From NCBI GenBank assembly GCA_964618645.1, contig CAZUBW010000010.1:282-64281 (forward strand): a stretch of DNA of 64,000 bases, written 5' to 3'. Shown here one piece after another: positions 3,264-59,768 of this stretch. Position numbers and translations under genes: made by a program. The notes under the pieces are model-generated. The model did no database searches and was not told the origin of the DNA. It saw nothing but the letters and a program-made list of their open reading frames with translations. Each line of letters starts with the position of its first letter. Within the stretch, counting starts at the first letter, position 1. This stretch comes from an uncultured Bacteroidales bacterium. GTDB taxonomy: Bacteria; Bacteroidota; Bacteroidia; Bacteroidales; UBA10428.

Positions 3264-4205
3264 ATGCGAAAAAAAACGAGCAAAAAATATGCCATGAATA
3301 CCAAAAGTGCTTTGTCGGTTTACCTTCCTGTTCTGCTGGCCATGGTGTTCTGGAGCTATAGTTTCATCTGGTATAAAGAGGTGCTTGTTTTTTACCGGCC
3401 CATAGCCCTCATTACCTTCAGACTGGTACTGGCCGTTCCGCTCTTGTTTCTGCTTTCGGTGGCACTGCGAAAGCTGCAGCATATCAAACGCAAAGACCTT
3501 GCCTGGTTTCTGCTACTGGGCTTTTTCGAACCTTTTCTTTATTTCATGGGCGAGTCGTATGGCATGAAACTGGTTTCGCCTACGCTGGCGGCCATTATCA
3601 TTTCACTTATTCCTTTGCTGGCTCCCATTCCGGCATGGTTCATCTTCAGGGAGCGCTTTACCCTTACCAATTACATTGGTTTGTTCATATCGGTAGCCGG
3701 CGTTATACTGGTAATCATGGGCGAAAACACCCATGCTGCAACTTCCCTGGCCGGGGTATTGCTGATGCTGTTGGCAGTTTTTGCGGCCGTGTTGCATTCG
3801 GTGGTCGTTCGTAAACTGGCAGGTCAATACAACTCGTTTACCATTGTCACCTACCAGAGCCTGTTCGGCCTGATCTACTTTCTTCCGCTTTTCGGAATAA
3901 TGGAGTTTTCGGGTTTTATCCAAATCACACACCGCTTTGAAATGGTGTGGCCGGTGGTAAAGTTGGCTGTTTTTGCATCTACCTTTGCCTTTTTATTCTT
4001 TGTGTATTCGATTCAGCGACTGGGCATTGTCCGTACCAATGTATTTGTAAACCTTATACCGGTTTTTACTGCCATATTGTCTTATTTTATCCTGAAGGAA
4101 CAGTTTGGGGTAATGAAAATGGTGGGTATTGCCGTGGTAATTGCCGGATTGGTCTTCAGCCAGCTTAACCGGCGTAGCCGGATGATGAAGAGAAGTGAAT
4201 TGTGA
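3264..4205 (+). CDS. DMT superfamily (EamA-like) transporter
   Basis: About 10 predicted TM helices in two EamA-like halves. The ORF opens at TTG 3255. In-frame ATGs at 3264 and 3294 are both plausible starts. Confidence 0.85.
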   Translation: MRKKTSKKYAMNTKSALSVYLPVLLAMVFWSYSFIWYKEVLVFYRPIALITFRLVLAVPLLFLLSVALRKLQHIKRKDLAWFLLLGFFEPFLYFMGESYGMKLVSPTLAAIIISLIPLLAPIPAWFIFRERFTLTNYIGLFISVAGVILVIMGENTHAATSLAGVLLMLLAVFAAVLHSVVVRKLAGQYNSFTIVTYQSLFGLIYFLPLFGIMEFSGFIQITHRFEMVWPVVKLAVFASTFAFLFFVYSIQRLGIVRTNVFVNLIPVFTAILSYFILKEQFGVMKMVGIAVVIAGLVFSQLNRRSRMMKRSEL

Positions 4206-4398
4206 ATAGTGACGAGAGACGAGTGACGAGTGACGAGTAGCAGCAGCAGTAGCAGCGGCAGTGCTTCGACTCCGCTCAGCATCCATCCAGTATCCAGTAT
4301 CCAGTATCCCGTATCCCGTATCCAGCACCTAGCACCTAGCACCCAGCACCCAGCACCCAGCATCCAGCATCCAGCCCCAACCCCTGCCTAAAGGCAGG
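4204..4398 (+). repeat. modular heptamer-repeat intergenic element, copy A
   Basis: Order of parts: GAATAGTGAC boundary, (TGACGAG)x4, a GCAGCAGC...AGCAGCGGCAGT block, then about 14 tandem CCAGYAY-type 7-mers, then a CCTGCC-TAAA-GGCAGG hairpin. Homologous to 34772-34896 and to the reverse complement of 14904-15184. Confidence 0.85.
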
Positions 4399-4466
4399 CA
4401 GGCTCTGCAACATTATTCCGAATCTTTTTTATATTTACAGCCTGATCCTGCCAAAAAAACGGCTGC

Positions 4467-11324: not shown

Positions 11325-13049
11325 ATGATTAGTATGAAGAATTTGACAGGGTTTTTCTACAGCAGGGCGTTTTTATTCCTATTCTTGCTGGCATTTTTAG
11401 TAAGCACCTTATATGTCCATGGCAGTAGCCACACCTGTAGGGAAATTGTTTTTGTCCATTTCGACAAAGAGGTATACACAGCCGGCAGCGCTGTTCGCTT
11501 TAAAGCATACCTGTTGACACAATCCGGCGAAAGACATAATACCATCGTCTATATTTCAATGCACGGCTGCGATGGCCTGGAAGTTTTTCATGGGCGCATT
11601 CCAGTTATTAACAACATGGCCACCGGGCTTTTTCAGTTGCCCGGGCAATTGCCCGAGGGTATTTATGAGATCAGGGCTTATACCAATGTTATGCGATGCA
11701 CCCATGCGGAAGCTGTTTTCAAGAAGAGCCTTCTTGTGTTGGGTTTTGCTGCAACCAGCGGGGATACGTTGTTTATGCCGGCTGTCGTTCACTGGGAAGT
11801 TCCGGCACCGGTTCAAAAAAATTTTGGAATTGAGATGAAAGTTTCAGGTCAGCAGATTGCCCCGGGCCAGAATATGCATCTTGGCATAAGCAGCAACATT
11901 GAAGATTCGGCTTTTCTTTCGTTGTCGGTTTGCCTCGAAACGCCCTTCGCGGATGTATTGAACGGCTATGAAACAGCCATCTCCGGACCGGCATTTCCGG
12001 GTTCTTCATTGGAAGAAGACAGCCATTGCCTGCAGGAATCAGCGGGTTTTATCCTGGCCGGTACCCTGTTAAAGCGTAGTAACCGTATGCCAGTGTCCGG
12101 TGCGGATTTGCTGCTGGCCGTAACCGACAGTACCTGGCCTGCATTGTTGTATGCAAAAACGGATGAGCAAGGTGATTTCTATTTTTATCTCAATAACCAC
12201 TATGATAACCGCGACCTGGTGATTCAGTTGGCAGACAGTGGCTACCGGGGCGATCTGCTGTGGATGATCGAAGACAAGGGCCTGCATGAGGTTACTGAAA
12301 TGATTGATATTCAACCCAATGATGCGCAGAAAAAATTCCTTCAGCATATCCGGGAACTCCGCATGATTGAGGCTGTGTTTGGTGACGGGCGCGACACGGC
12401 AATTGGACGGGTTTTAACCCCCGGTTATAATGCTTTTTTTAGTCACCCCGACAAGGTAACCAGGCCGGCAGAATACGTTAACCTACATAATTTCAATGAA
12501 ATGGACGATAATATTTTGCCCCTGATCCGCTTTTTCCGCAGGGACAACCGGTATTGTCTTTCGGTATATAACGCCGGGCAAAACAGCTGGTACGAGGATG
12601 TGTTGTTGCTGTTGAACGGTGTGCCCTTTTATGACCAGGAATACATAAGCATGCTAAGCACAAAGCAGGTAAAGCGTGTGGACACCTATACATCGGGTTT
12701 GATTGTTGGGGGAGTTAGTTACGATGGCGTGGTTTCGGTATATACTTACGACAATACACTGCCTGAGGCCTATCTGCAATCGGGCGCCTGTGTATGGCGC
12801 AATCATGTATTGTCCAATGGGTATATCACTGTTCCTGAAACTGTGGACGCAGGAGACCGGATTCCCGATTTCAGGGATAACCTTTGTTTTATGCCTGAGA
12901 TAACCATAGGTCCGGGCGAAACCATTGACATTGCCTTTAAGGGGTCATTACTGGAAGGATCCTACCGTATAAGAATTAAAGGTATAACCGCTTCGGGTGA
13001 ACCGGTCAGTCTTTCATCTCGTTTTATCATACAACAGGACCATGAATAA
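11325..13049 (+). CDS. hypothetical membrane-anchored/secreted protein with MG2-like N-terminal segment (574 aa)
   Basis: The ATG directly abuts the upstream stop. N-terminal hydrophobic helix. The segment FDKEVYTAGSAVRFKAYLL resembles the start of macroglobulin MG2-type beta-sandwich domains. Confidence 0.6.
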   Translation: MISMKNLTGFFYSRAFLFLFLLAFLVSTLYVHGSSHTCREIVFVHFDKEVYTAGSAVRFKAYLLTQSGERHNTIVYISMHGCDGLEVFHGRIPVINNMATGLFQLPGQLPEGIYEIRAYTNVMRCTHAEAVFKKSLLVLGFAATSGDTLFMPAVVHWEVPAPVQKNFGIEMKVSGQQIAPGQNMHLGISSNIEDSAFLSLSVCLETPFADVLNGYETAISGPAFPGSSLEEDSHCLQESAGFILAGTLLKRSNRMPVSGADLLLAVTDSTWPALLYAKTDEQGDFYFYLNNHYDNRDLVIQLADSGYRGDLLWMIEDKGLHEVTEMIDIQPNDAQKKFLQHIRELRMIEAVFGDGRDTAIGRVLTPGYNAFFSHPDKVTRPAEYVNLHNFNEMDDNILPLIRFFRRDNRYCLSVYNAGQNSWYEDVLLLLNGVPFYDQEYISMLSTKQVKRVDTYTSGLIVGGVSYDGVVSVYTYDNTLPEAYLQSGACVWRNHVLSNGYITVPETVDAGDRIPDFRDNLCFMPEITIGPGETIDIAFKGSLLEGSYRIRIKGITASGEPVSLSSRFIIQQDHE

Positions 13050-13719
13050 AAAGCAGTTGTTGGTATTTATGGCACTTTGCGTTTTTTTGCCGGGCAACGC
13101 GCAGGAGATGGAATATCCCTGCAGGTATTGTGCCGATTATAATCTGTACCTCCGGCAGGGTTTAAGTGGCCAGGTTTACAACAACCCGGTACCGGGTTAT
13201 ATGGGTGAACGGTATTTTGGCGAATGGCGGAAGGGAACCCTTTATTTCGAAAATGGTGATTCGGTTACCGGCGTTGATTTGCGTTACGAGAAGTACCTCG
13301 ATGAGTTGCTATTTCTTAACGCGGAATTAAAGGCCGGAGTGCTGCAAAAGTCGGGTATAAAAGGTTTTACCATTTACAATGATCATGGCGCGAACTTTAT
13401 TTTTATAAAGCGATACCTTAAGCTCAGTACCGACACAGATACGCTTCCGCACTTTATGCAATGGCTGATAGCGGGCAATGTCTCGTTGTATGTCAATAGG
13501 AAGGTAGTAAAATCGGATTATGGAAAGCTTGAAAATGCCGATCAGTATTATTTATACTATGCCGGCAGGCATTACCAGGTGAGGTTACGGCGGAAAGAGT
13601 TGCTCAGGTTGCCATTTGTATCGCCTCAGGCAATGAAGGCCCTGCTCAGAAAGGGCAGGATAAGGGTAAATGACGAAGCAGGCCTGGTAAAAGCAATTAC
13701 TTTCTACAATGAACATTGA
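13042..13719 (+). CDS. hypothetical secreted protein (225 aa)
   Basis: The internal ATG at 13042 gives a clean signal peptide (MNKKQLLVFMALCVFLPGNAQ). It overlaps the upstream stop by 8 nt (ATGAATAA). The ORF-track start at 12997 is probably spurious. Confidence 0.6.
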   Translation: MNKKQLLVFMALCVFLPGNAQEMEYPCRYCADYNLYLRQGLSGQVYNNPVPGYMGERYFGEWRKGTLYFENGDSVTGVDLRYEKYLDELLFLNAELKAGVLQKSGIKGFTIYNDHGANFIFIKRYLKLSTDTDTLPHFMQWLIAGNVSLYVNRKVVKSDYGKLENADQYYLYYAGRHYQVRLRRKELLRLPFVSPQAMKALLRKGRIRVNDEAGLVKAITFYNEH

Positions 13720-13726
13720 TAACCAA

Positions 13727-13835
13727 CAGCTATTAGCCATTGGCTATTAGCTGTTAGCCAATAGCCAAAGGCTAAAGGCCAAAGGCTAAAGCCTGCCTGA
13801 GCGGCAGCGCAGGCAGGGCTAATAGCTAACGGCTG
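13727..13835. repeat. variant short-repeat/palindromic intergenic element (copy D)
   Basis: GCTAWTAGC-type words occur four times. (CYAAAGG)x4 heptamers sit at about 13764-13792. An 8-bp stem hairpin CCTGCCTG-N10-CAGGCAGG lies at 13792-13817. The element sits between two convergent genes. Confidence 0.7.
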
Positions 13836-13862: not shown

Positions 13863-14804
13863 TCAAACCAGAATGTTGGTTGTAAGGTTGGTGATGCTGG
13901 TTTTGATGGCATCAAAGGGCAATCCGTCCTTGGTTGAGTCCTGTTCAACAATCATGTATTTCATGCCGGCGATGTCTTTGGCAGCCAGAATTTCCTTGAA
14001 ATTAATGACACCGGCGCCCACGGGTGCAAAATCAGTAACCCCGTCGGTCGTATAAAATGGCGCTTCGTTGGTAAACATGTCCTTCATGTGGAAGAGCTGG
14101 AACCTGCCGGGGTATTTGTTAAATATCTCTACGGGGTTCTGGCCTGCCTTGATGGTCCAGAAGAAGTCGATTTCCATGGTTACCAGGTCCTTGTCGAGTT
14201 CGGTCATGAATACATCGAAATAAGGAATTTTACCTTCCACGGTGTCGAATTCGAAGTTGTGGTTGTGATATCCAAACTGGATACCGGTTTCCTTCATGAT
14301 TTTGCCTACCAGGTTCCAGTCGGCCACCATTTTCTGGTAGCTGGCGATGGTGGTCCGGGCTTCGGGCACAACCCAGGGTTGCACGCAATATTTGACGCCC
14401 AGTTTGGCGTGGTCTTCGGCCATTATTTTGGCGTTGTCGAGGGTTATACCTTCGGCTTCAACCTGCGTGTGGCTGCTGATAATTTCCATACCCAGGTCGT
14501 TGACCAGTTTTTTAAAATCGGCTGGTTCCATACCGTAGAATTTCCGGTCGGCATAACCAGCCAGTTCGATGTATTTATACCCCATATCGGCAACTTTTTT
14601 CAGCGAACCGGGTGCGTCAATTCCCATGGCATCGCGAATGGTATATAATTGCAATCCGATGCCGAAAGATTTCGGGTCAACCACCGGACTTTCGGTAACA
14701 GGTTTACCGGCATTCTTGCAGGCAAAATGCGACAGTGTAATCATTCCCAGGGCTCCTGCAGCAGAAACCCTCAGGAAGTCCCTTCGTGAAGTGTTTTGTT
14801 TCAT
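13863..14804 (-). CDS. sugar phosphate isomerase/epimerase (xylose isomerase-like TIM barrel) with Tat signal
   Basis: N-terminal twin-arginine motif SRRDFLRVSAAGALG. The body has the GYKYIELAG, GYHNHNFEF and LFHMKD pattern typical of AP endonuclease 2 / xylose isomerase-like TIM barrel proteins. Confidence 0.85.
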   Translation of the reverse strand: MKQNTSRRDFLRVSAAGALGMITLSHFACKNAGKPVTESPVVDPKSFGIGLQLYTIRDAMGIDAPGSLKKVADMGYKYIELAGYADRKFYGMEPADFKKLVNDLGMEIISSHTQVEAEGITLDNAKIMAEDHAKLGVKYCVQPWVVPEARTTIASYQKMVADWNLVGKIMKETGIQFGYHNHNFEFDTVEGKIPYFDVFMTELDKDLVTMEIDFFWTIKAGQNPVEIFNKYPGRFQLFHMKDMFTNEAPFYTTDGVTDFAPVGAGVINFKEILAAKDIAGMKYMIVEQDSTKDGLPFDAIKTSITNLTTNILV

Positions 14805-14903
14805 CCGTTCTCGATTTATTAAGTTAATAGTTGGTCAAAAAATGAACCCTAAATATAGTACAAAAGTCAATACGGATGGGAAATGCTTTGTTTATTTTGG
14901 CAT

Positions 14904-15194
14904 GCCGGGTGCCGGGTGCTAGGTGCTAGGTGCTGGGTGCTGGGTGCTGGGTGCCGGGTGCTGGATGCTGGGTGCTGGGTACTAGGTGCTGGGTGCTGGG
15001 TGCTGGGTGCTGGGTGCTGGGTACTGGGTGCTGGATGCTGGGTGCTGGGTGCTGGATACTGGCCCCTGACTGCCGCTGCTACTGCCACTGCTACTGCCAC
15101 TGCCACTTTCTTGGCTCTTGCCTCTTGCCTCTTGGTTTTTCTCTTGCTCATTACTCCAACTCTTGCTGATTTTTGTCCCTATTCCTGATTCCTG
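14904..15194 (-). repeat. modular heptamer-repeat intergenic element, copy B (inverted, largest)
   Basis: The plus strand shows about 23 tandem GCTGGGT-type 7-mers (14904-15062), then GCTGCTACTGCCACTGCTACTGCC, then CTCTTGC units. It ends with TTGTCCCTATTC (reverse complement GAATAGGGACAA) and two ATTCCTG units. It is the reverse complement of the architecture of copies A and C. Confidence 0.85.
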
Positions 15195-15282
15195 TCAGCC
15201 AACCGCATCCTTAATCTGCCTGTTTGGGACAGGCAAACGAAAATATTTTTGACGTACTTGTTGTTTTTGAGAAAAAAACGTC

Positions 15283-15290
15283 TACCTTTG
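15283..15290 (+). promoter_or_regulatory. candidate -7 promoter box (TACCTTTG) of the rpsL ribosomal operon
   Basis: Exact TAnnTTTG match 40 nt upstream of the rpsL ATG. T-rich TTTG motifs lie upstream at 15248-15251 and 15266-15269, but their spacing to a -33 element is ambiguous. Confidence 0.5.
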
Positions 15291-15330
15291 CAAGCCAATT
15301 TTGAAGAAAAAATATACAAAAAAAGCATAG

Positions 15331-15705
15331 ATGCCAACGATACAGCAATTAGTAAGAAAGGGCAGGTCGACAAATGTAGACAAGAGCAAGGCTCCGGCCC
15401 TGAATGCTTGTCCCCAGAAGCGCGGAGTTTGCACCCGCGTGTATACCACCACCCCCAAGAAGCCCAATTCGGCTATGCGTAAGGTAGCAAGGGTAAGGCT
15501 TCAGCATGGAATTGAGGTTACGGCTTACATTCCGGGCGAAGGTCATAATCTGCAGGAGCACTCCATTGTTATGATCCGTGGAGGCAGGGTTAAGGATTTG
15601 CCGGGTGTTCGTTACCACATTATAAGGGGTGCGCTCGACACTTCGGGTGTTGAAGGTCGCAACCAGCGCCGTTCGAAATATGGCACCAAGAAACCTAAAA
15701 AATAA
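15331..15705 (+). CDS. rpsL: 30S ribosomal protein S12
   Basis: [12 protein letters not shown]..., [16 protein letters not shown], and str-operon synteny. Confidence 0.98.
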
Positions 15706-32722: not shown

Positions 32723-33316
32723 ATGCGACATAATAATGCAAAGAATAATTTAGGACGAAAAAGCGCACACCGCAAAGCCATGCTATCCAATATGGCTTCT
32801 TCACTGATCCTTCACAAGCGCATAAAAACCACAACCGCCAAAGCAAAGGCCCTGCGTATTTTTATTGAGCCCATACTTACACGCTCAAAAGAAGACAGTA
32901 CCCATTCACGCCGGTTTGCTTTTTCATACCTGCAGGACAAAGATGCCGTTACTACGCTTTTCAGGGAAGTATCCCCCAAGATTACCGATCGTCCGGGTGG
33001 CTATACCCGTATACTGAAGATCGGAAGTCGTGTGGGTGACGCCGCTGATATGTGTTTTATTGAGCTTGTCGACTTTAACGAAGCCATGCTGGGTGCTGCT
33101 GCCGCTGCTGATAGCAAAACAACACGCCGCAGCCGCAGGGGATCGAAAAAGAAAGCCGAAGGCGAGGAAGCAGCTAAACCCGTTAAAGCTGCCGGAGAAA
33201 AAGAAGTAAAAGCCAAAAAGGCAGCTCCCAAAGCAGCTGAAGAAGAAAAGCAGGCCGGCGACGCCGCTGCTGAACCTTCACCTGAAAACCAGGACGAAGC
33301 TACCGGTAAAGAATAA
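32723..33316 (+). CDS. rplQ: 50S ribosomal protein L17 with Ala/Lys/Glu-rich C-terminal tail (197 aa)
   Basis: [21 protein letters not shown] and GGYTRILK motifs. The last roughly 75 aa are low-complexity A/K/E. Confidence 0.97.
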
Positions 33317-34636
<1,320 letters not shown>

Positions 34637-34670
34637 TCGCCAACAGGAAAAAACCTGTTTAAACCATAAT

Positions 34671-34712
34671 AAGCCCTGCAAGCGGATAAAACCCTTGCAG
34701 GGCTTTTTTTTT
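34671..34712 (+). terminator. intrinsic terminator after eno
   Basis: 12-bp stem AAGCCCTGCAAG/CTTGCAGGGCTT with an 11-nt loop, followed by a T9 run. It begins 35 nt after the eno stop. Confidence 0.8.
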
Positions 34713-34771
34713 CATGCTTTTTGTGCGTAACTTTAAACAAAACAATTGTATAGGTGTTGAATAAGAGGCTA

Positions 34772-34896
34772 GAATAGGGACAAGGGACAAGGGACGAGTA
34801 GCAGCGGCAGTAGCAGCGGCAGTCAGTATCCAGTATCCAGCACCCAGCACCCAGCCCCCAGTATCCAGCACCCAGCACCCAGCACCCAGCATCCAG
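34772..34896 (+). repeat. modular heptamer-repeat intergenic element, copy C
   Basis: GAATAGGGACAA boundary, (GGGACRA)x3, (TAGCAGCGGCAG)x2, then 11 CCAGYAY-type 7-mers ending CCAGCATCCAG. It lies between the eno terminator and gltA. Confidence 0.85.
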
Positions 34897-48516: not shown

Positions 48517-51500
48517 ATGATACCCTGTAAAACGCTCAAACCCTGCATTATCCTGGTTCTCTTTGTTTTGGCCTTTACACCGGCGGGCCTTGCCCAGGAG
48601 GATGGAAAGTTGAAGGATCTTTTCCTGGAAGCCGAGTCGTATTTTCTTTTTGAAGAATTCAAGGATGCCTTGCCCTTGTACCAGCGGATGCTGGCTGCCG
48701 ATCCCGAGAATTTCAACATCAGCTATAAAATTGGCATATGTTACCTGAATGATATTTACCAGGTTAGCAAATCAATTACCTATCTCGAGAAAGCCGTGCA
48801 AGGCACCAGTCCCGACAGTAAAACCAACAGTTTTAAGGAAAGATTTGCGCCACCCGAAGCGCTTTACTATCTGGGGAATGCCTACCGGGCCAATAATCGC
48901 CTGAAAGAAGCCATTACCACCTACCAGCAGTTTAAAGAAGTGCTCGATCCGCAGGTATACGATGCCGAGCTGGTTGACGAGCAGATTCAAGCCTGCCGGG
49001 TGGCAGAACAGCAACAGCAGCAACCTATGCATTACGTGGCAGTGAATGTTGGCGAGCCCATCAATAACCGCTTCGAAGAGTTAAATCCCGTTATCTCGGG
49101 AGATGAGAAAGTGATGTTGTTTACCCGCAGGTTGCAGTTTTACGATGCCGTATTTTATACACGCCGCGACAATGGCAGATGGACCGATCCAATTAACCTG
49201 ACACCCTCGTTCGGACTCGACGGAAACTCATACACTACCGGTCTTTCATACAACGGCGATGAAGTATTCGTATACCGGAGCGATAATTTTGACGGGAATT
49301 TGTATTCCAGCCGGTATCGTAACGGCAAGTGGTCCGAACTCGAAAAGCTGAACGGCAATATCAACACCAAATACTGGGAATCACATGCCACATTGTCAAA
49401 GGATGGCAAAACACTGTATTTTACCAGTAACCGTGAGGGTGGCTATGGCGGACTTGATATTTACCGCTCCGAACGAACCAGGGGGGGCGACTGGGGGCCG
49501 GCAGTAAATTTAGGCCCGGCTGTTAATTCGCGTTTCAACGAAGATACACCTTTTATAACAGAGGATGACAATGCGTTGTATTTCAGTTCAATGGGGCATA
49601 GCAACATGGGGGGGTACGATATTTTTTACAGTACCCGTTCAGGTGGCGGACAATGGTCTGCTCCGGTAAATATAGGATTTCCGCTCAATACCACACGCGA
49701 CGATCAGTTCTTTGTTCCTGTTGGTTCGGGAGCTTATGGATATTATTCGCGTTACGACGTTAACGATACGTATGGCATGCGCGATATATATAAACTTGAG
49801 GTTTTTACACCACTTCATCCACGCAAATTTATTCTCAACGGTGTTGCCAGGGTAGGTGGAGAGTCAAACCCCGATTATTCGCAGATTACTGCCACACTCG
49901 TCGATCAGAAAACGGGCAGAATTGTTGATCAGTCGCGTTTGAATGCCGATGGGTCTTACACGCTCAATGCCCTTTCGGGCGATTTTGATTTGCAGATGCG
50001 GGGCGAAGGCATACGCGAAAACCACGAAAGAATTTCCATACCCATTAACAATCCCTCCAATATTGTAGTTCACTCTTCGATGCTCACCGCAGCCGCCTCT
50101 GAAGCCGGAGCTGACGAAACGGTCACGGTTGGTATGGTTGAGGTTTCAGCCGGCCCCGAATTACATATTCCGGTGTCGAGCTACAACGTTACCACCAACG
50201 AATCCATTCCCATACGTCTCGACCTTGAAAGAAATACCAGGCTGAAGGTGGCTACCATTTTAAATGATACGCTGCTAAAAACTGAACATTTCGACGTGAA
50301 AAGGCGAAGGTTTGTTTACATGCTCACGCCGGAGCCCGGTATTAATAAATTGCGGTTTACGCTTATTAACAGTAAAGGCGACAGTACCATCCGGGAGGTA
50401 ACGGTTATGTACACGCCGATAGCCGAAGAACCCGAAGATGTGCCGCTGCCGGGCGACAGGGTACTGGCCGATAGTAACCGTTACTCGGGTTTACAACTGA
50501 TGGCCGAAGGCAATCTCGAAAAGTTCCTTGGACAAGCTGGAATAAAGAAAAGGAAGTTTGACAGTGTGGCAGATCTTTACGAATTCCTGTTAAAAAATGC
50601 AGCCGAAAATGGTTACACCGCGCAGGATGTGGATGAACTGATGACCCGTTTCCTTTCGCAGAAAGACCTGAACCTGTTTTATGACGAACTCATGCATCAT
50701 GCACCTGACAGTCTGTCAAGGTCGCTTGGCAGGCTTAATCCTGCAGCCAATCATATTTACACTGCCGAGTCCCTGCTCGACCATTTGTATGAGCATGCCA
50801 CCGGTGAGCAATACAGCCTGAAGGAGCTTCGTGAAACACTGTATAGCCTTGCTGCATTGCACCGCGATCCGCGAGAGCTTATCGGTTTGTTCGAATCGTA
50901 TGCAAGGGGTGAACTGGGCGCCATGCTGGGTACCATGGCGGAAAACTGGCAGGCATATCCCGATACCCGGTCTGTGGCCGATCACATTATGAAAGAGGCA
51001 GAAAATAAGGTGTTTCCGCTCGAACAACTCGATGAAATGTTGAGGCTGGCGGCATCCGACATCAATGCCCGTTTCCTTGAACAGGCACTGTTATACACCT
51101 CTTCTGAAAACCTTAGGCAGGCATTGCTTACATTAAATACCGAAAAGCAGGGTATCCGGAATTCCAGGGAGCTGATTAGTTACCTCCTTGGTAATGCCGA
51201 TAAGGGCAATTATTCGCGCCGGGAATTGCTTGAAAATATTGAGAAAATACGCAGAGACCCCTATTATTACATTGATCTGCTTCGTAAGATGTTGGCGGAA
51301 AGGGCATCAGGAACACTCAAGGAGTTTCTGCAGGAGATTGATGTGAGGAGTCTCAGGCTGACCACTTTCGAGGATCTTTTGGATTACCTGTTGAACCAAT
51401 CGCAGTTCCGCGATTACAATCGCGAAATGGTGTACCAGTTGCTCATTGATATCATCAATCCGCGTAATGTGGCCGAATTTCTCGAAATGCTCAGGGTGCA

Positions 51501-57604: not shown

Positions 57605-57704
57605 TGAAGTGTTAATTTGATGCCTCTTGCTTTTTATGATTCTTTTTTTGTAAATTAGCTATAGGACAAGAAGATTGCTGTGTAAAATTCTATACCACCA
57701 ATCT

Positions 57705-59768
57705 ATGCAAAAAGCCAAAAGATGGTTTCTTTTATGGGTTTTGTGTTATTTGACTATTCTGACTTTTGGCCAGCAGGAAGCTGCGCTTGAAGCTGTATTG
57801 GATGCAGGCGATATAAAAAAGCTCACAAAAGCAGAGGAATACAAAGGAAATGCCGACAAGTTAATTGAAGAAGCCGCACGGTTGAATATGGAGGAACTAA
57901 CTGTCGGCTCTGATGCCTCCTTAAACGAAAAATCCCGTCAACGTAAGGTTGAACAGCTTCAGAATCAGGCACTGCAAAAATACCTTGAAGCAGCTACATG
58001 GCTCGAAAAATGCAACGAGGTTAAATTTACCGTTTACCGTGATTATCTCAACCGGTTTTGGGATGAGCACGATGGCGAAGAAGAGGCTTACCTCAACGAA
58101 AAACTGATGGAGGAACAGGCCAGCGATCATTTTTTCCAGGCCTTAAATTACAGGCTCGAAGCCAAAAAAATGGATGCCGGCTATGCAAGGGTGGAAAAGC
58201 TTAATGAGGCCAATGCCCTCGAAGAACAGGCAATCCGCAAACAAGTGGATGCCTTGCTGGTATACCATCAATTGCAACCGGGGACAACCGTGACCGATAC
58301 TTCCCCGGATTTATTAACGGAGCCCGCTGAGGAACAGGCAGCGCCCTATGATGAGCCAGGCATCACGGATTATGTAGCCTATCAGGCAGATACTTCTGTT
58401 ATGGTTGCCGGAACAGAGAGTACCCCCGAAAACTACGTCCGGCCACAAACCTCTGAACCGGCATATGTTCCGGAAATCACAGCTCAACAAGCACCGCAGG
58501 AGCGTAAAACCATTCCGGAGAATATTACCCTCGACCAGGAGGTTATTGATGCCTATAACCGATATATGGCATCGGGGATGTTTACCGATACCACGCTTTC
58601 TACCGGCCATATTGCAGGACTGACCGGTTTTGAAACCGACCGGGTGTTGCAGCTCTGGTACGAATATCGCTATGGGCAACCATACCCCGGCGAAGCACCA
58701 GCATTGACCGATACCGTGAAACCAACAGAACCGGCAACGGTTATTGCAGCAACTGATCAGCCTGATGCCGCTGAAACGGCCGGAGGCGAACCTGTTATAT
58801 CAGATGAAACAGAAGACGAACCTGTTATGCAGGAGGATGCAGCAGAGGAACCGGTAATTGGTATTGTCACCGACGAGAACAGGGGACAACTGGTGCCTGC
58901 GGATGAAAACGTAATATACAGGGTGCAGATAGCCGCCAACCGGACCGAGTTAACGCAGCGTGCACTAAGCAAAATATACTACGGAAGTAAGAATGTGGAG
59001 ATGATCAGCGAGGGAGGCTGGTACAAATACGCTGTGGGTGATTTCAACAGTTACGAGGAGGCTTCCCGTTTCCGTAAAGAGAGTGGCGTTAGCAATGCTT
59101 TTGTAGTTGCCTACCGCAAGGGTACACGACTGTTAACGCCCGGGACAGAAGAAGTGGCTGAAACTCCGGCGGCAGTTTTTCCTGCCGGCGAAGCGCGCTT
59201 GCCCGAAGGCCTGATTTTTAGGGTACAGGTGGCTGCAAGCAGGGTTCCGCTGAGCATGGCACAGTTCCGGCGGATATACGGAGGAAATCTTCCCGTTGAA
59301 ATGATTTCAGAGGAAGGCTGGTACAAATACCAGCTGATGGGAACGCGGTTGTTTTCCGATACCAGGCAGCTATTGCAGTCGGTTAATGTCAGAGGGGCAT
59401 TTGTGGTGGCTTATTCCGGTGGCAGTAAGGTTAACCTGGCCGAGGCCGTGAGGAACACCAAGCCGGTTGAAGACAACGTGCGTAAGTTTGGTCGTAAGGG
59501 CTATGTGAACGAAATCGAGTTTCATGTTCAACTCGCGGCTTCACGTTCGGTAATGCCCCGGCAAGAGCTGCAATTGTTGTATAATGGCGCCGGGCCGGTT
59601 TCGGTAATATATGAGGATGGCTGGTACAAGTACCATTTGAAAGCCGGCAATTCTCCCGAACTTGCACTACAGCTAAGACAGGCATGTGGTGTTTCAAAAG
59701 CCTTTATAGTGGCTTACAAGCGTGGTCATAAACTCACGTATTACCAGGCAATCCAGGAATTGAAATAA
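57705..59768 (+). CDS. SPOR-domain protein (three C-terminal SPOR repeats)
   Basis: Signal/anchor (WFLLWVLCYLTILTFGQQ), then a coiled/acidic linker. Three about 75-aa repeats follow, of the form [YF]RVQ[IV]AA(N/S)R...GWYKY...AFVVAY. The ATG at 57705 is preferred over the TTG at 57675. Confidence 0.85.
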   Translation: MQKAKRWFLLWVLCYLTILTFGQQEAALEAVLDAGDIKKLTKAEEYKGNADKLIEEAARLNMEELTVGSDASLNEKSRQRKVEQLQNQALQKYLEAATWLEKCNEVKFTVYRDYLNRFWDEHDGEEEAYLNEKLMEEQASDHFFQALNYRLEAKKMDAGYARVEKLNEANALEEQAIRKQVDALLVYHQLQPGTTVTDTSPDLLTEPAEEQAAPYDEPGITDYVAYQADTSVMVAGTESTPENYVRPQTSEPAYVPEITAQQAPQERKTIPENITLDQEVIDAYNRYMASGMFTDTTLSTGHIAGLTGFETDRVLQLWYEYRYGQPYPGEAPALTDTVKPTEPATVIAATDQPDAAETAGGEPVISDETEDEPVMQEDAAEEPVIGIVTDENRGQLVPADENVIYRVQIAANRTELTQRALSKIYYGSKNVEMISEGGWYKYAVGDFNSYEEASRFRKESGVSNAFVVAYRKGTRLLTPGTEEVAETPAAVFPAGEARLPEGLIFRVQVAASRVPLSMAQFRRIYGGNLPVEMISEEGWYKYQLMGTRLFSDTRQLLQSVNVRGAFVVAYSGGSKVNLAEAVRNTKPVEDNVRKFGRKGYVNEIEFHVQLAASRSVMPRQELQLLYNGAGPVSVIYEDGWYKYHLKAGNSPELALQLRQACGVSKAFIVAYKRGHKLTYYQAIQELK

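Follow-up and report, generated by a model that had tools for sequence, protein, structure and literature searches.

The window analysed here is a stretch of 64,000 nucleotides from an uncultured Bacteroidales bacterium (GenBank assembly GCA_964618645.1, contig CAZUBW010000010.1), in which a sugar-phosphate isomerase/epimerase gene (AP_endonuc_2 fold) and rpsL are transcribed divergently from the two ends of a 526-bp spacer (14805-15330). Within this spacer lies a compound tandem-repeat element whose most prominent part is a long array of heptamers. A parse of positions 14902-15062 gave 23 in-register tandem units of the GCTGGGT type, and Tandem Repeats Finder (TRF) reported TGCTGGG x21.9 at 14903-15055 (89% matches, score 236). 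Both agree with an earlier note on this DNA, made from the sequence alone, which had counted about 23 such heptamers on the plus strand and had described the array as the largest, inverted copy of a heptamer element in the 526-bp isomerase/rpsL spacer. Size, orientation and spacer were as described there: the element, here called copy B, is the largest of three copies in the window and is inverted relative to the other two, A and C.

Read on the minus strand, 13 of the 23 units of array B are CCAGCAC and the remaining 10 are variants of it; the corresponding plus-strand reading is GTGCTGG. When up to two mismatches were allowed, CCAGCACCCAGCAC matched 37 times in the window against 0.36 matches expected, and all 13 substitutions within array B were transitions. 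The heptamer array makes up just the 3' half of a composite element, which occupies 4194-4379 on the plus strand (A), 14902-15194 on the minus strand (B) and 34776-34896 on the plus strand (C), each copy in an intergenic spacer of its own. The order of modules, read along the element strand, is identical in the three copies: purine-rich 7-mers (GAGTGAC, AAGAGGC or AAGGGAC, depending on the copy) are followed by two to three AGTAGCAGCGGC 12-mers, then by CCAGTAT and finally by the CCAGCAC 7-mers.

In copy B, all of whose modules lie on the minus strand, the 23 CCAGCAC-type heptamers at 14902-15062 (TRF, unit parse, pattern search) are succeeded along the plus-strand numbering by the 12-mer block at 15069-15107, reported by TRF as ACTGCCACTGCT x3.2 and recognised by pattern search and alignment as the AGTAGCAGCGGC-type core common to A, B and C. 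Next come the purine-rich heptamers at 15109-15134 (TCTTGCC x3.7 by TRF, AAGAGGC on the element strand) and a degenerate 5' tail at 15135-15194, which includes GAATAGGGACAA and ends, as read from the sequence, in two ATTCCTG units at 15181-15194. Copy A (TRF, sequence, alignment) consists of AGTGAAT/AGTGACG 7-mers, the 12-mer core, CCAGTAT and CCAGCAC 7-mers; its start coincides with the stop codon of an EamA-type transporter gene, and 88 nt separate its end from a rhomboid gene. Copy C (TRF, sequence) is built of AAGGGAC 7-mers, two copies of the 12-mer core and CCAGTAT/CCAGCAC 7-mers, and lies between the enolase gene, after its terminator (an inverted repeat at 34668-34708), and the citrate synthase gene (gltA), whose ATG follows after 30 nt. 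By their gene families, the neighbours of all three copies are ordinary genes.

The 15-mer AGTAGCAGCGGCAGT matched seven times in the window, against 0.05 matches expected, and every match fell within A, B or C. Because this 15-mer is confined to the three copies, because GAATAGGGACAA is common to the 5' ends of B and C, and because the unit parse found the sub-pattern CCAGCAC-CTAGCAC-CTAGCAC in both A and B, the copies are, by their shared sequence, homologous rather than independent products of slippage.

The element is bipolar in composition, with 5' halves that are 70-75% purine and 3' halves that are 44-51% C, and the T content of its strand is 6-16%, compared with 26% in the window. Orientation is uniform: for each of the three copies, the gene downstream has the C-rich strand as its sense strand and the G-rich strand as its non-coding one. 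The distance from the end of the array to the downstream start codon is 30 nt for C, 88 nt for A and 98 nt for B. No inverted repeats were detected by an inverted-repeat search in the spacers of A and B, and Rfam gave no match at the gathering score in the window and none at E<=1 in 14700-15400. Short, similar hairpins flank two of the copies: TGCCTaaaGGCAGGCA at 4385-4400 beside A, and TGCCTGTttgggACAGGCA at 15217-15235 (plus strand) beside B, between the element and the rpsL promoter. The latter has a 7-bp stem and, according to folds, pattern search and alignment, is lineage-specific. A palindromic TGCCT..AGGCA pattern beside the arrays was not significantly enriched (3 matches against 0.63 expected).

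Relatives, strains and short-read assemblies

The isomerase has its closest homologues in entries annotated 'MAG: Bacteroidales bacterium' (MAG, metagenome-assembled genome). Two relatives, L079 (GCA_016930375.1) and L081 (a 345-kb ENA contig), encode isomerases 86% and 83% identical to that of the window and share the divergent isomerase/rpsL synteny, with spacers of 213-237 bp. No tandem repeat was found in these two spacers, and about 40 kb of sequence from the relatives was free of heptamer arrays. Alignment showed that about 85 nt upstream of the rpsL ATG, comprising a TTG, the box TACCTTTG and the leader, are almost invariant among the window, L079 and L081, and that upstream of this block the three sequences cannot be aligned; the hairpin TGCCTGTttgggACAGGCA is present in neither relative, and a single ATTCCTG in L079 occupies roughly the place of the tail of copy B. 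Since both relatives lack the array yet carry the invariant rpsL block, array B was, on this comparison, gained recently and by this lineage specifically, at a place outside the conserved promoter of rpsL. The locus orthologous to A in L081 also lacks an array and keeps a TATATTTAC box, which in the window stands just downstream of array A. The EamA-rhomboid spacer of L081 (14850-15015, minus strand of the locus) contains a small lipoprotein-like open reading frame (ORF; MKTILHIV...VVPAGCSS...); in the window the same spacer holds array A, and this ORF is not present.

Change between strains is seen in L001, a strain of the same species that is 97.9% identical to the window over the 3.5 kb from rpsL to fusA. 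In blastn its homology stops at 15142; the modules upstream of that point are of the same kinds but form another mosaic, which includes a duplicated segment of about 45 nt. The length variation that the earlier note had envisaged is therefore real between strains and takes the form of module turnover; variation in steps of 7 bp could not be shown. In several samples, Logan short-read contigs end at 15142 (L003-L005, L008), 15143 (L002), 14943 (L011), 14912 (L012) and 4346 (L077, L078): short-read assemblies break at the arrays.

Searches for the composite elsewhere returned chance matches. The pattern AGCAGCGGCAGT-N0-30-CCAGYAYCCAGYAY gave 4 matches in a set of 185,579 species represented by one genome each, and a slightly looser pattern gave 33 in JGI metagenome contigs, all of them chance coding matches in high-GC genomes; the element may be missing from these scans because assemblies break at its arrays. 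In viral contigs (CCAGCAC)x3 was found at 27 loci, most of them an unrelated coding repeat of high-GC, phage-like contigs, and blastn of the non-heptamer part against plasmids yielded trivial GCW-type repeat matches only. Look-ups of the flanking genes in an exact-protein index, as a route to other alleles, met Logan contigs most of which stop at the arrays, and enolase and citrate synthase were not on record there. Two long ENA metagenome contigs carry perfect (GTGCTGG)n, with 26 units in L083 (10126-10319) and 20 in L084 (10111-10254); they are gene-poor and satellite-rich, have a Pao retrotransposon domain and are probably eukaryotic DNA, so that the same heptamer microsatellite arises far outside the bacteria.

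Quadruplex capacity and promoters

The canonical G-quadruplex (G4) rule, G3+N1-7 x4, was matched by regular expression at two places in the whole 64 kb, both on the plus strand of copy B: four G3 tracts with 4-nt loops at 14935-14958, and six G3 tracts with 4-nt loops at 14991-15028, the second of which was also recovered by the quadruplex option of ViennaRNA. These are exactly the tracts that the earlier note had listed. The C-tract equivalent of the four-tract motif occurs nowhere on the plus strand of the 64 kb. Copies A and C fall outside the rule, with at most three consecutive C3 tracts: in this set of three copies, runs of perfect tracts number 4 and 6 in B, 3 in A and 3+3 in C, so that A and C do have shorter C3-tract runs in the same orientation toward their downstream genes, as had been stated.

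When the quadruplex term of ViennaRNA, which is calibrated on RNA, was included, the G-rich strand of B as single-stranded DNA was predicted to form three G4s, and its folding energy changed from -7.9 to -24.4 kcal/mol. The same strand has little Watson-Crick structure to compete with them (z = +3.9 against dinucleotide shuffles). By these models the sequence is G4-capable. G4Hunter gave array B a moderate peak of just 1.44 (25-nt window), under the usual 1.5, and several coding sites in the window outscore it, such as one of 1.88 at 49470. In array B 16 of about 23 possible GGG tracts are intact. Because 7 of the 13 substitutions fall in the tract-forming positions, which make up 3/7 of the unit, the G tracts are, by this count, no better conserved than the loops.

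Tracts of three cytosines are too short for a stable i-motif at neutral pH, and formation of one by the complementary strand under such conditions is unlikely. The heptamers studied by Rehm gave i-motif signatures at pH 6.5 or below only (Rehm 2015; PMC4692102).

Bacteroidetes-type promoters, with the consensus TAnnTTTG at -7, are used by this organism, and a sigma-70 promoter scan was set aside for that reason. By this consensus the promoter of rpsL is clear; with the leader it forms a block at 15255-15330 on the plus strand, identified by motif scan and alignment, in which the -7 box TACCTTTG at 15283-15290 is preceded by a TTG 19 or 22 nt upstream (the -33 element); here the position given for the box in the earlier note was confirmed. 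More than 120 bp separate the -33 region from array B, which ends upstream of it. On the isomerase side, a relaxed scan located a candidate -7 box, TATATTTA, at 14850-14857 on the minus strand, between the array and the ATG at 14804, which agrees with the consensus at seven of eight positions. The same candidate sequence (7/8) recurs at 4430, past array A and ahead of the rhomboid gene, where L081 conserves it, and another 7/8 candidate, TAACTTTA, is found at 34728, ahead of array C; the 30 nt that separate C from the ATG of gltA contained no candidate -7 box in a motif scan. Arrays A and B are thus upstream of their candidate boxes and C is downstream of its only one. If these boxes are used, A and B would lie upstream of the promoter of the downstream gene and C within a 5' leader, an uneven placement that argues against one shared cis-regulatory role.

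These observations bear on the proposal that a G4 on the plus strand, an i-motif on the minus strand or changes in unit number in the supercoiled divergent region modulate transcription of the isomerase gene, of rpsL or of both. In its favour, the two canonical motifs of B are unique in the 64 kb, and three G4s are predicted, with no hairpin in competition. The twin-domain model of supercoiling favours strand opening between divergent promoters. The Xanthomonas G3N4 heptamer repeat (GGGAATC)3GGG folds in vitro into a G4 that depends on K+ and has a Tm of 50.4 C (PMC4692102), and deletion of heptamer repeats altered regulator-dependent reporter output in Nostoc constructs (bioRxiv 10.1101/2022.06.06.494920). 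However, relatives without the array retain the rpsL promoter block, the array stands well upstream of the -33 region and is also upstream of the candidate isomerase box, A and C have no canonical motifs, tract positions are not preferentially conserved and G4Hunter stays below 1.5. In addition, the i-motif half of the proposal would depend on C3 tracts, and in Rehm's survey such repeats were under-represented where ORFs diverge, and a regulatory effect of them could not be shown (Rehm 2015; PMC4692102). Taken together, these points make the regulatory reading unlikely, and the suggestion that non-B DNA at the array could affect the rpsL operon was not supported.

Origin, kinship and alternative roles of the element

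The explanation favoured here, to which we assign a probability of about 0.58, is that the element is a dispersed, lineage-specific compound tandem repeat of the heptamer-assemblage or STRR kind, built by slippage, copied between loci and tolerated, and that it does not regulate rpsL. Sequence comparison establishes what this explanation draws on: the copies are homologous, relatives lack them, modules turn over from strain to strain, and the tracts are not specially conserved; the steps that we infer are slippage, copying between loci and a filter on orientation. Replication slippage and unequal recombination would lengthen, shorten and reshuffle arrays of this kind, as suggested by variant units that occur as adjacent duplicates, by block duplications, by the module turnover between strains and by changes that are all transitions. 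The composite would then be copied between loci, through recombination or some mobilisation step, and may persist in harmless spacers, that is, between transcription units and outside core promoters. Its shared orientation would reflect a filter against transcription of the G-rich strand, because RNA or displaced DNA of that strand would be strongly structured (G-U/G-C hairpin, G4) and the C-rich strand is free of structure. As RNA, the G-rich strand folds at -82 kcal/mol per 160 nt, and the C-rich RNA of the minus strand of B is less structured than dinucleotide shuffles (z = +2.3); orientation has probably been filtered. The G4 motifs of B may be a by-product of a GGG-containing unit having reached at least four perfect copies in a row. 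The array is probably tolerated repeat DNA rather than a regulator.

Several considerations weigh against this explanation. The same orientation in three of three copies could reflect a positive function, though n = 3, and G4-forming heptamers were observed to follow this orientation rule genome-wide (Rehm 2015; PMC4692102). With its fixed order of modules and its bipolar composition, the element seems more organised than slippage alone would make it. The arrays stand beside housekeeping genes (rpsL, eno/gltA), where junk would be unexpected and where non-B DNA could be driven by the negative supercoiling that arises between divergent promoters. No mechanism of mobilisation was found by which the element could be copied from locus to locus, and sequence cannot prove the absence of function.

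By its sequence features the element belongs to a known class of intergenic heptanucleotide repeats: it has tandem 7-nt units in three spacers, changes between strains and is absent from relatives. The heptamers GGGAATC and GGGGA(C/T)T of Xanthomonas and Nostoc are G4-forming, mostly intergenic and dispersed, with up to 26 units; their length and sequence vary widely between close relatives, they show a genome-wide preference for four units, and their function was left unresolved (Rehm 2015; PMC4692102). Like them, the arrays described here have a 7-nt unit with one G3+ tract, so that at least four units satisfy the G4 rule (in copy B only), are intergenic, dispersed and strain-variable, reach 23 units, and stand upstream of ORFs with the G-rich strand as the non-coding one (three of three copies). 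The differences are the unit, GGGTGCT; the position of B between divergent ORFs, the arrangement that is under-represented in that study; the lack of a visible four-unit preference among three copies; and the incorporation of the heptamers as one module of a fixed, multi-module composite in an uncultured Bacteroidales host, with a G4 that is predicted.

The heptamers of cyanobacteria, such as CCCCAGT, were reportedly first described by Mazel et al. in 1990. These STRR sequences are 7-bp repeats of unknown function (PMC2670836). They resemble the present element in being tandem intergenic heptamers with many dispersed copies, in which different heptamers often abut, and the C-rich unit here, CACCCAG, is similar to a rotated STRR1 unit, TCCCCAG, a likeness over 7 nt that is no evidence of common descent. 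Unlike the arrays described here, which are less structured than random sequence, STRR sequences were defined in heterocystous cyanobacteria and some of them form hairpins. The element is not an STRR in the strict sense, as its host has Bacteroidales homologues and a TAnnTTTG promoter and its units differ from CCCCAGT, TTGGTCA and CAACAGT.

Another parallel is provided by the TAACTGA repeats and 'larger assemblages of heptamer repeats' of Beggiatoaceae, Cyanobacteria and five Bacteroidetes (MacGregor 2015; PMC4679880). There, as here, mixed heptamer assemblages occupy intergenic DNA of Bacteroidetes and read forward toward the downstream start codon, syntenic close relatives are without repeats, some repeats are upstream of ribosomal protein genes, and contigs end within repeats. 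The TAACTGA unit is a different one, and in BOGUAY (Cand. 'Maribeggiatoa' Orange Guaymas) the repeats are a few nt from start codons, compared with 30-98 nt here; the fixed module order over three loci is also more pronounced in the present element. As summarised in the same article, Mrazek et al. (2007) found heptanucleotides to be the commonest among repeat units of 5-11 nt, which was attributed to polymerase slippage (PMC4679880). Such long simple sequence repeats are matched by the frequency of period 7 in the window (10 of 40 TRF rows); the work, insofar as that summary describes it, was a statistical survey and included no composite dispersed elements. Simple sequence repeats of the phase-variation kind, which sit within a reading frame or between or across core promoter elements and switch expression through their unit number, differ from the array, which lies outside ORFs and outside core promoters and is flanked by housekeeping genes.

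In enterobacteria, the REP and BIME sequences are short intergenic mosaics at gene ends, made of palindromic REP units that owe their mobility to RAYT transposases. The present element is likewise a short, dispersed intergenic mosaic drawn from few module types; unlike REP/BIME, it is not palindromic, its A and B spacers being devoid of inverted repeats and its strands folding more poorly than shuffles (z = +3.9, +2.3), and it has no Rfam match. What is particular to the element is its unit sequence, its Bacteroidales host, a bipolar module order that is fixed at three loci and the location of B between divergent genes.

Other functions can be set against a tolerated repeat. One of them, a transcription insulator acting at the RNA level, is also unlikely. 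It would follow from the bipolar composition: transcription in either direction would make the distal half of the element into a C-rich, G-poor, unstructured RNA with the composition of a Rho utilisation (rut) site, which takes at least 70-80 nt of such RNA in an untranslated but transcribed region. There Rho would terminate read-through or antisense transcripts: A would bring the transcript of the transporter gene to an end, and stray transcription would be kept out of the isomerase gene by B and out of gltA by C. In keeping with this, the arrays are the top 78-nt windows for C over G on their strand (C-G of 27-30 against a mean of -1.75, sd 5.9, or about 5 sd; a measure of composition only), they are followed, on the other strand, by the complements of the 5' halves, the C-rich RNA has less structure than its shuffled versions, and all three copies have one orientation. 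Array A, moreover, starts on the upstream stop codon, with no intrinsic terminator before the next promoter and the hairpin at 4385-4400. Nevertheless, composition alone predicts Rho sites weakly, a strong intrinsic terminator already precedes C, where a rut site is not needed, no known transcript crosses array B, and relatives manage without the element.

The array might also be a platform with many sites for a protein that binds DNA or RNA sequence-specifically at CCAGCAC units, such as a nucleoid-associated protein or a factor for translation or mRNA stability. A function of this kind has been proposed for TAACTGA repeats (PMC4679880) and for Nostoc heptamers (bioRxiv 10.1101/2022.06.06.494920), and it would accommodate the conservation of the unit over three loci and its consistent orientation toward the downstream gene. 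It is judged quite improbable, since no candidate binding protein was identified, heptamer words occur near background frequency outside the arrays, relatives are without arrays, and both the start-codon distance (30, 88 and 98 nt) and the position relative to the candidate promoters vary.

At a similarly low level of confidence, the bipolar composite might be a self-propagating, bidirectional insulator between transcription units, in which a polymerase coming from either side meets a G-rich, structure-prone stretch and then makes C-rich, Rho-loading RNA. As part of this proposal, the G-rich strand in the rpsL spacer would also absorb negative supercoils as a G4, and the elements would form a class specific to the uncultured Bacteroidales lineage and invisible in short-read assemblies.

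Finally, it is very improbable that the array encodes a repeat peptide, either as a 94-amino-acid ORF on the minus strand, (PAPSTQH)n, or as a 101-amino-acid ORF on the plus strand, (VLGAGCW)n: open frames do cross the array and ORFs like these have been called as genes in many assemblies (222 database 'proteins'), but a stop-free heptamer array is open in all frames anyway, the ORFs differ among A, B and C, relatives have no such gene, and the matches share the repeat only, include satellite-rich, eukaryote-like DNA (two long contigs fetched) and have a Pfam domain in 4 of 120 among the matches listed, each from another family. Use of the array ORF as a protein query in search of more arrays returned these 222 repeat 'proteins' and the two eukaryote-like contigs and was uninformative on this element.

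Further observations and significance

A Chi-like recombination hotspot was considered for the heptamer (GCTGGGTG, compared with GCTGGTGG of E. coli) and not favoured, as the words are near background outside the arrays and an 8:1 strand skew in tiny counts is explicable by gene orientation. The underlying counts for CTGGGTG outside the three elements are 8 on the plus strand and 1 on the minus strand, with about 2.7 expected per strand, probably an effect of gene orientation and GC skew. A further heptamer repeat, AAAGGCT x3.6 (alternatively GCCAAAGGCTAAAG x2), is found at 13767-13791 between convergent genes at 12997-13719 (plus) and 13863-14804 (minus). Unrelated to the heptamer elements is a 30-nt tandem repeat (x2.2) at 58787-58852, which is in frame within a 697-amino-acid ORF at 57675-59768.

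Elsewhere in the window, ribosomal protein L17 (gene at 32723-33316) is extended at its C-terminal end by a segment that scores 137.5 bits against NCBIfam NF051448 ('sunset domain variant'), below the cut-off of 280. The enolase ORF as called (33317-34636) starts at TTG; the true start is likely the ATG at 33344 (MGQIAHV...), and neither version was on record in the exact-protein index.

Were the quadruplex or the insulator reading true, the main ribosomal-protein operon of a Bacteroidales would be tuned by a repeat acquired recently, and the spacer would be a naturally occurring case in which non-B DNA between divergent promoters could be tested. If, as is more likely, the element is a tolerated compound repeat, heptamer repeats of the STRR and Rehm types proliferate in uncultured Bacteroidales too, and whole composites are copied between loci with their bipolar order fixed. 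The breaks in short-read assemblies fall exactly at the arrays, and elements of this sort are therefore likely missing from short-read MAG collections. The arrays could serve as strain-typing markers of the lineage.

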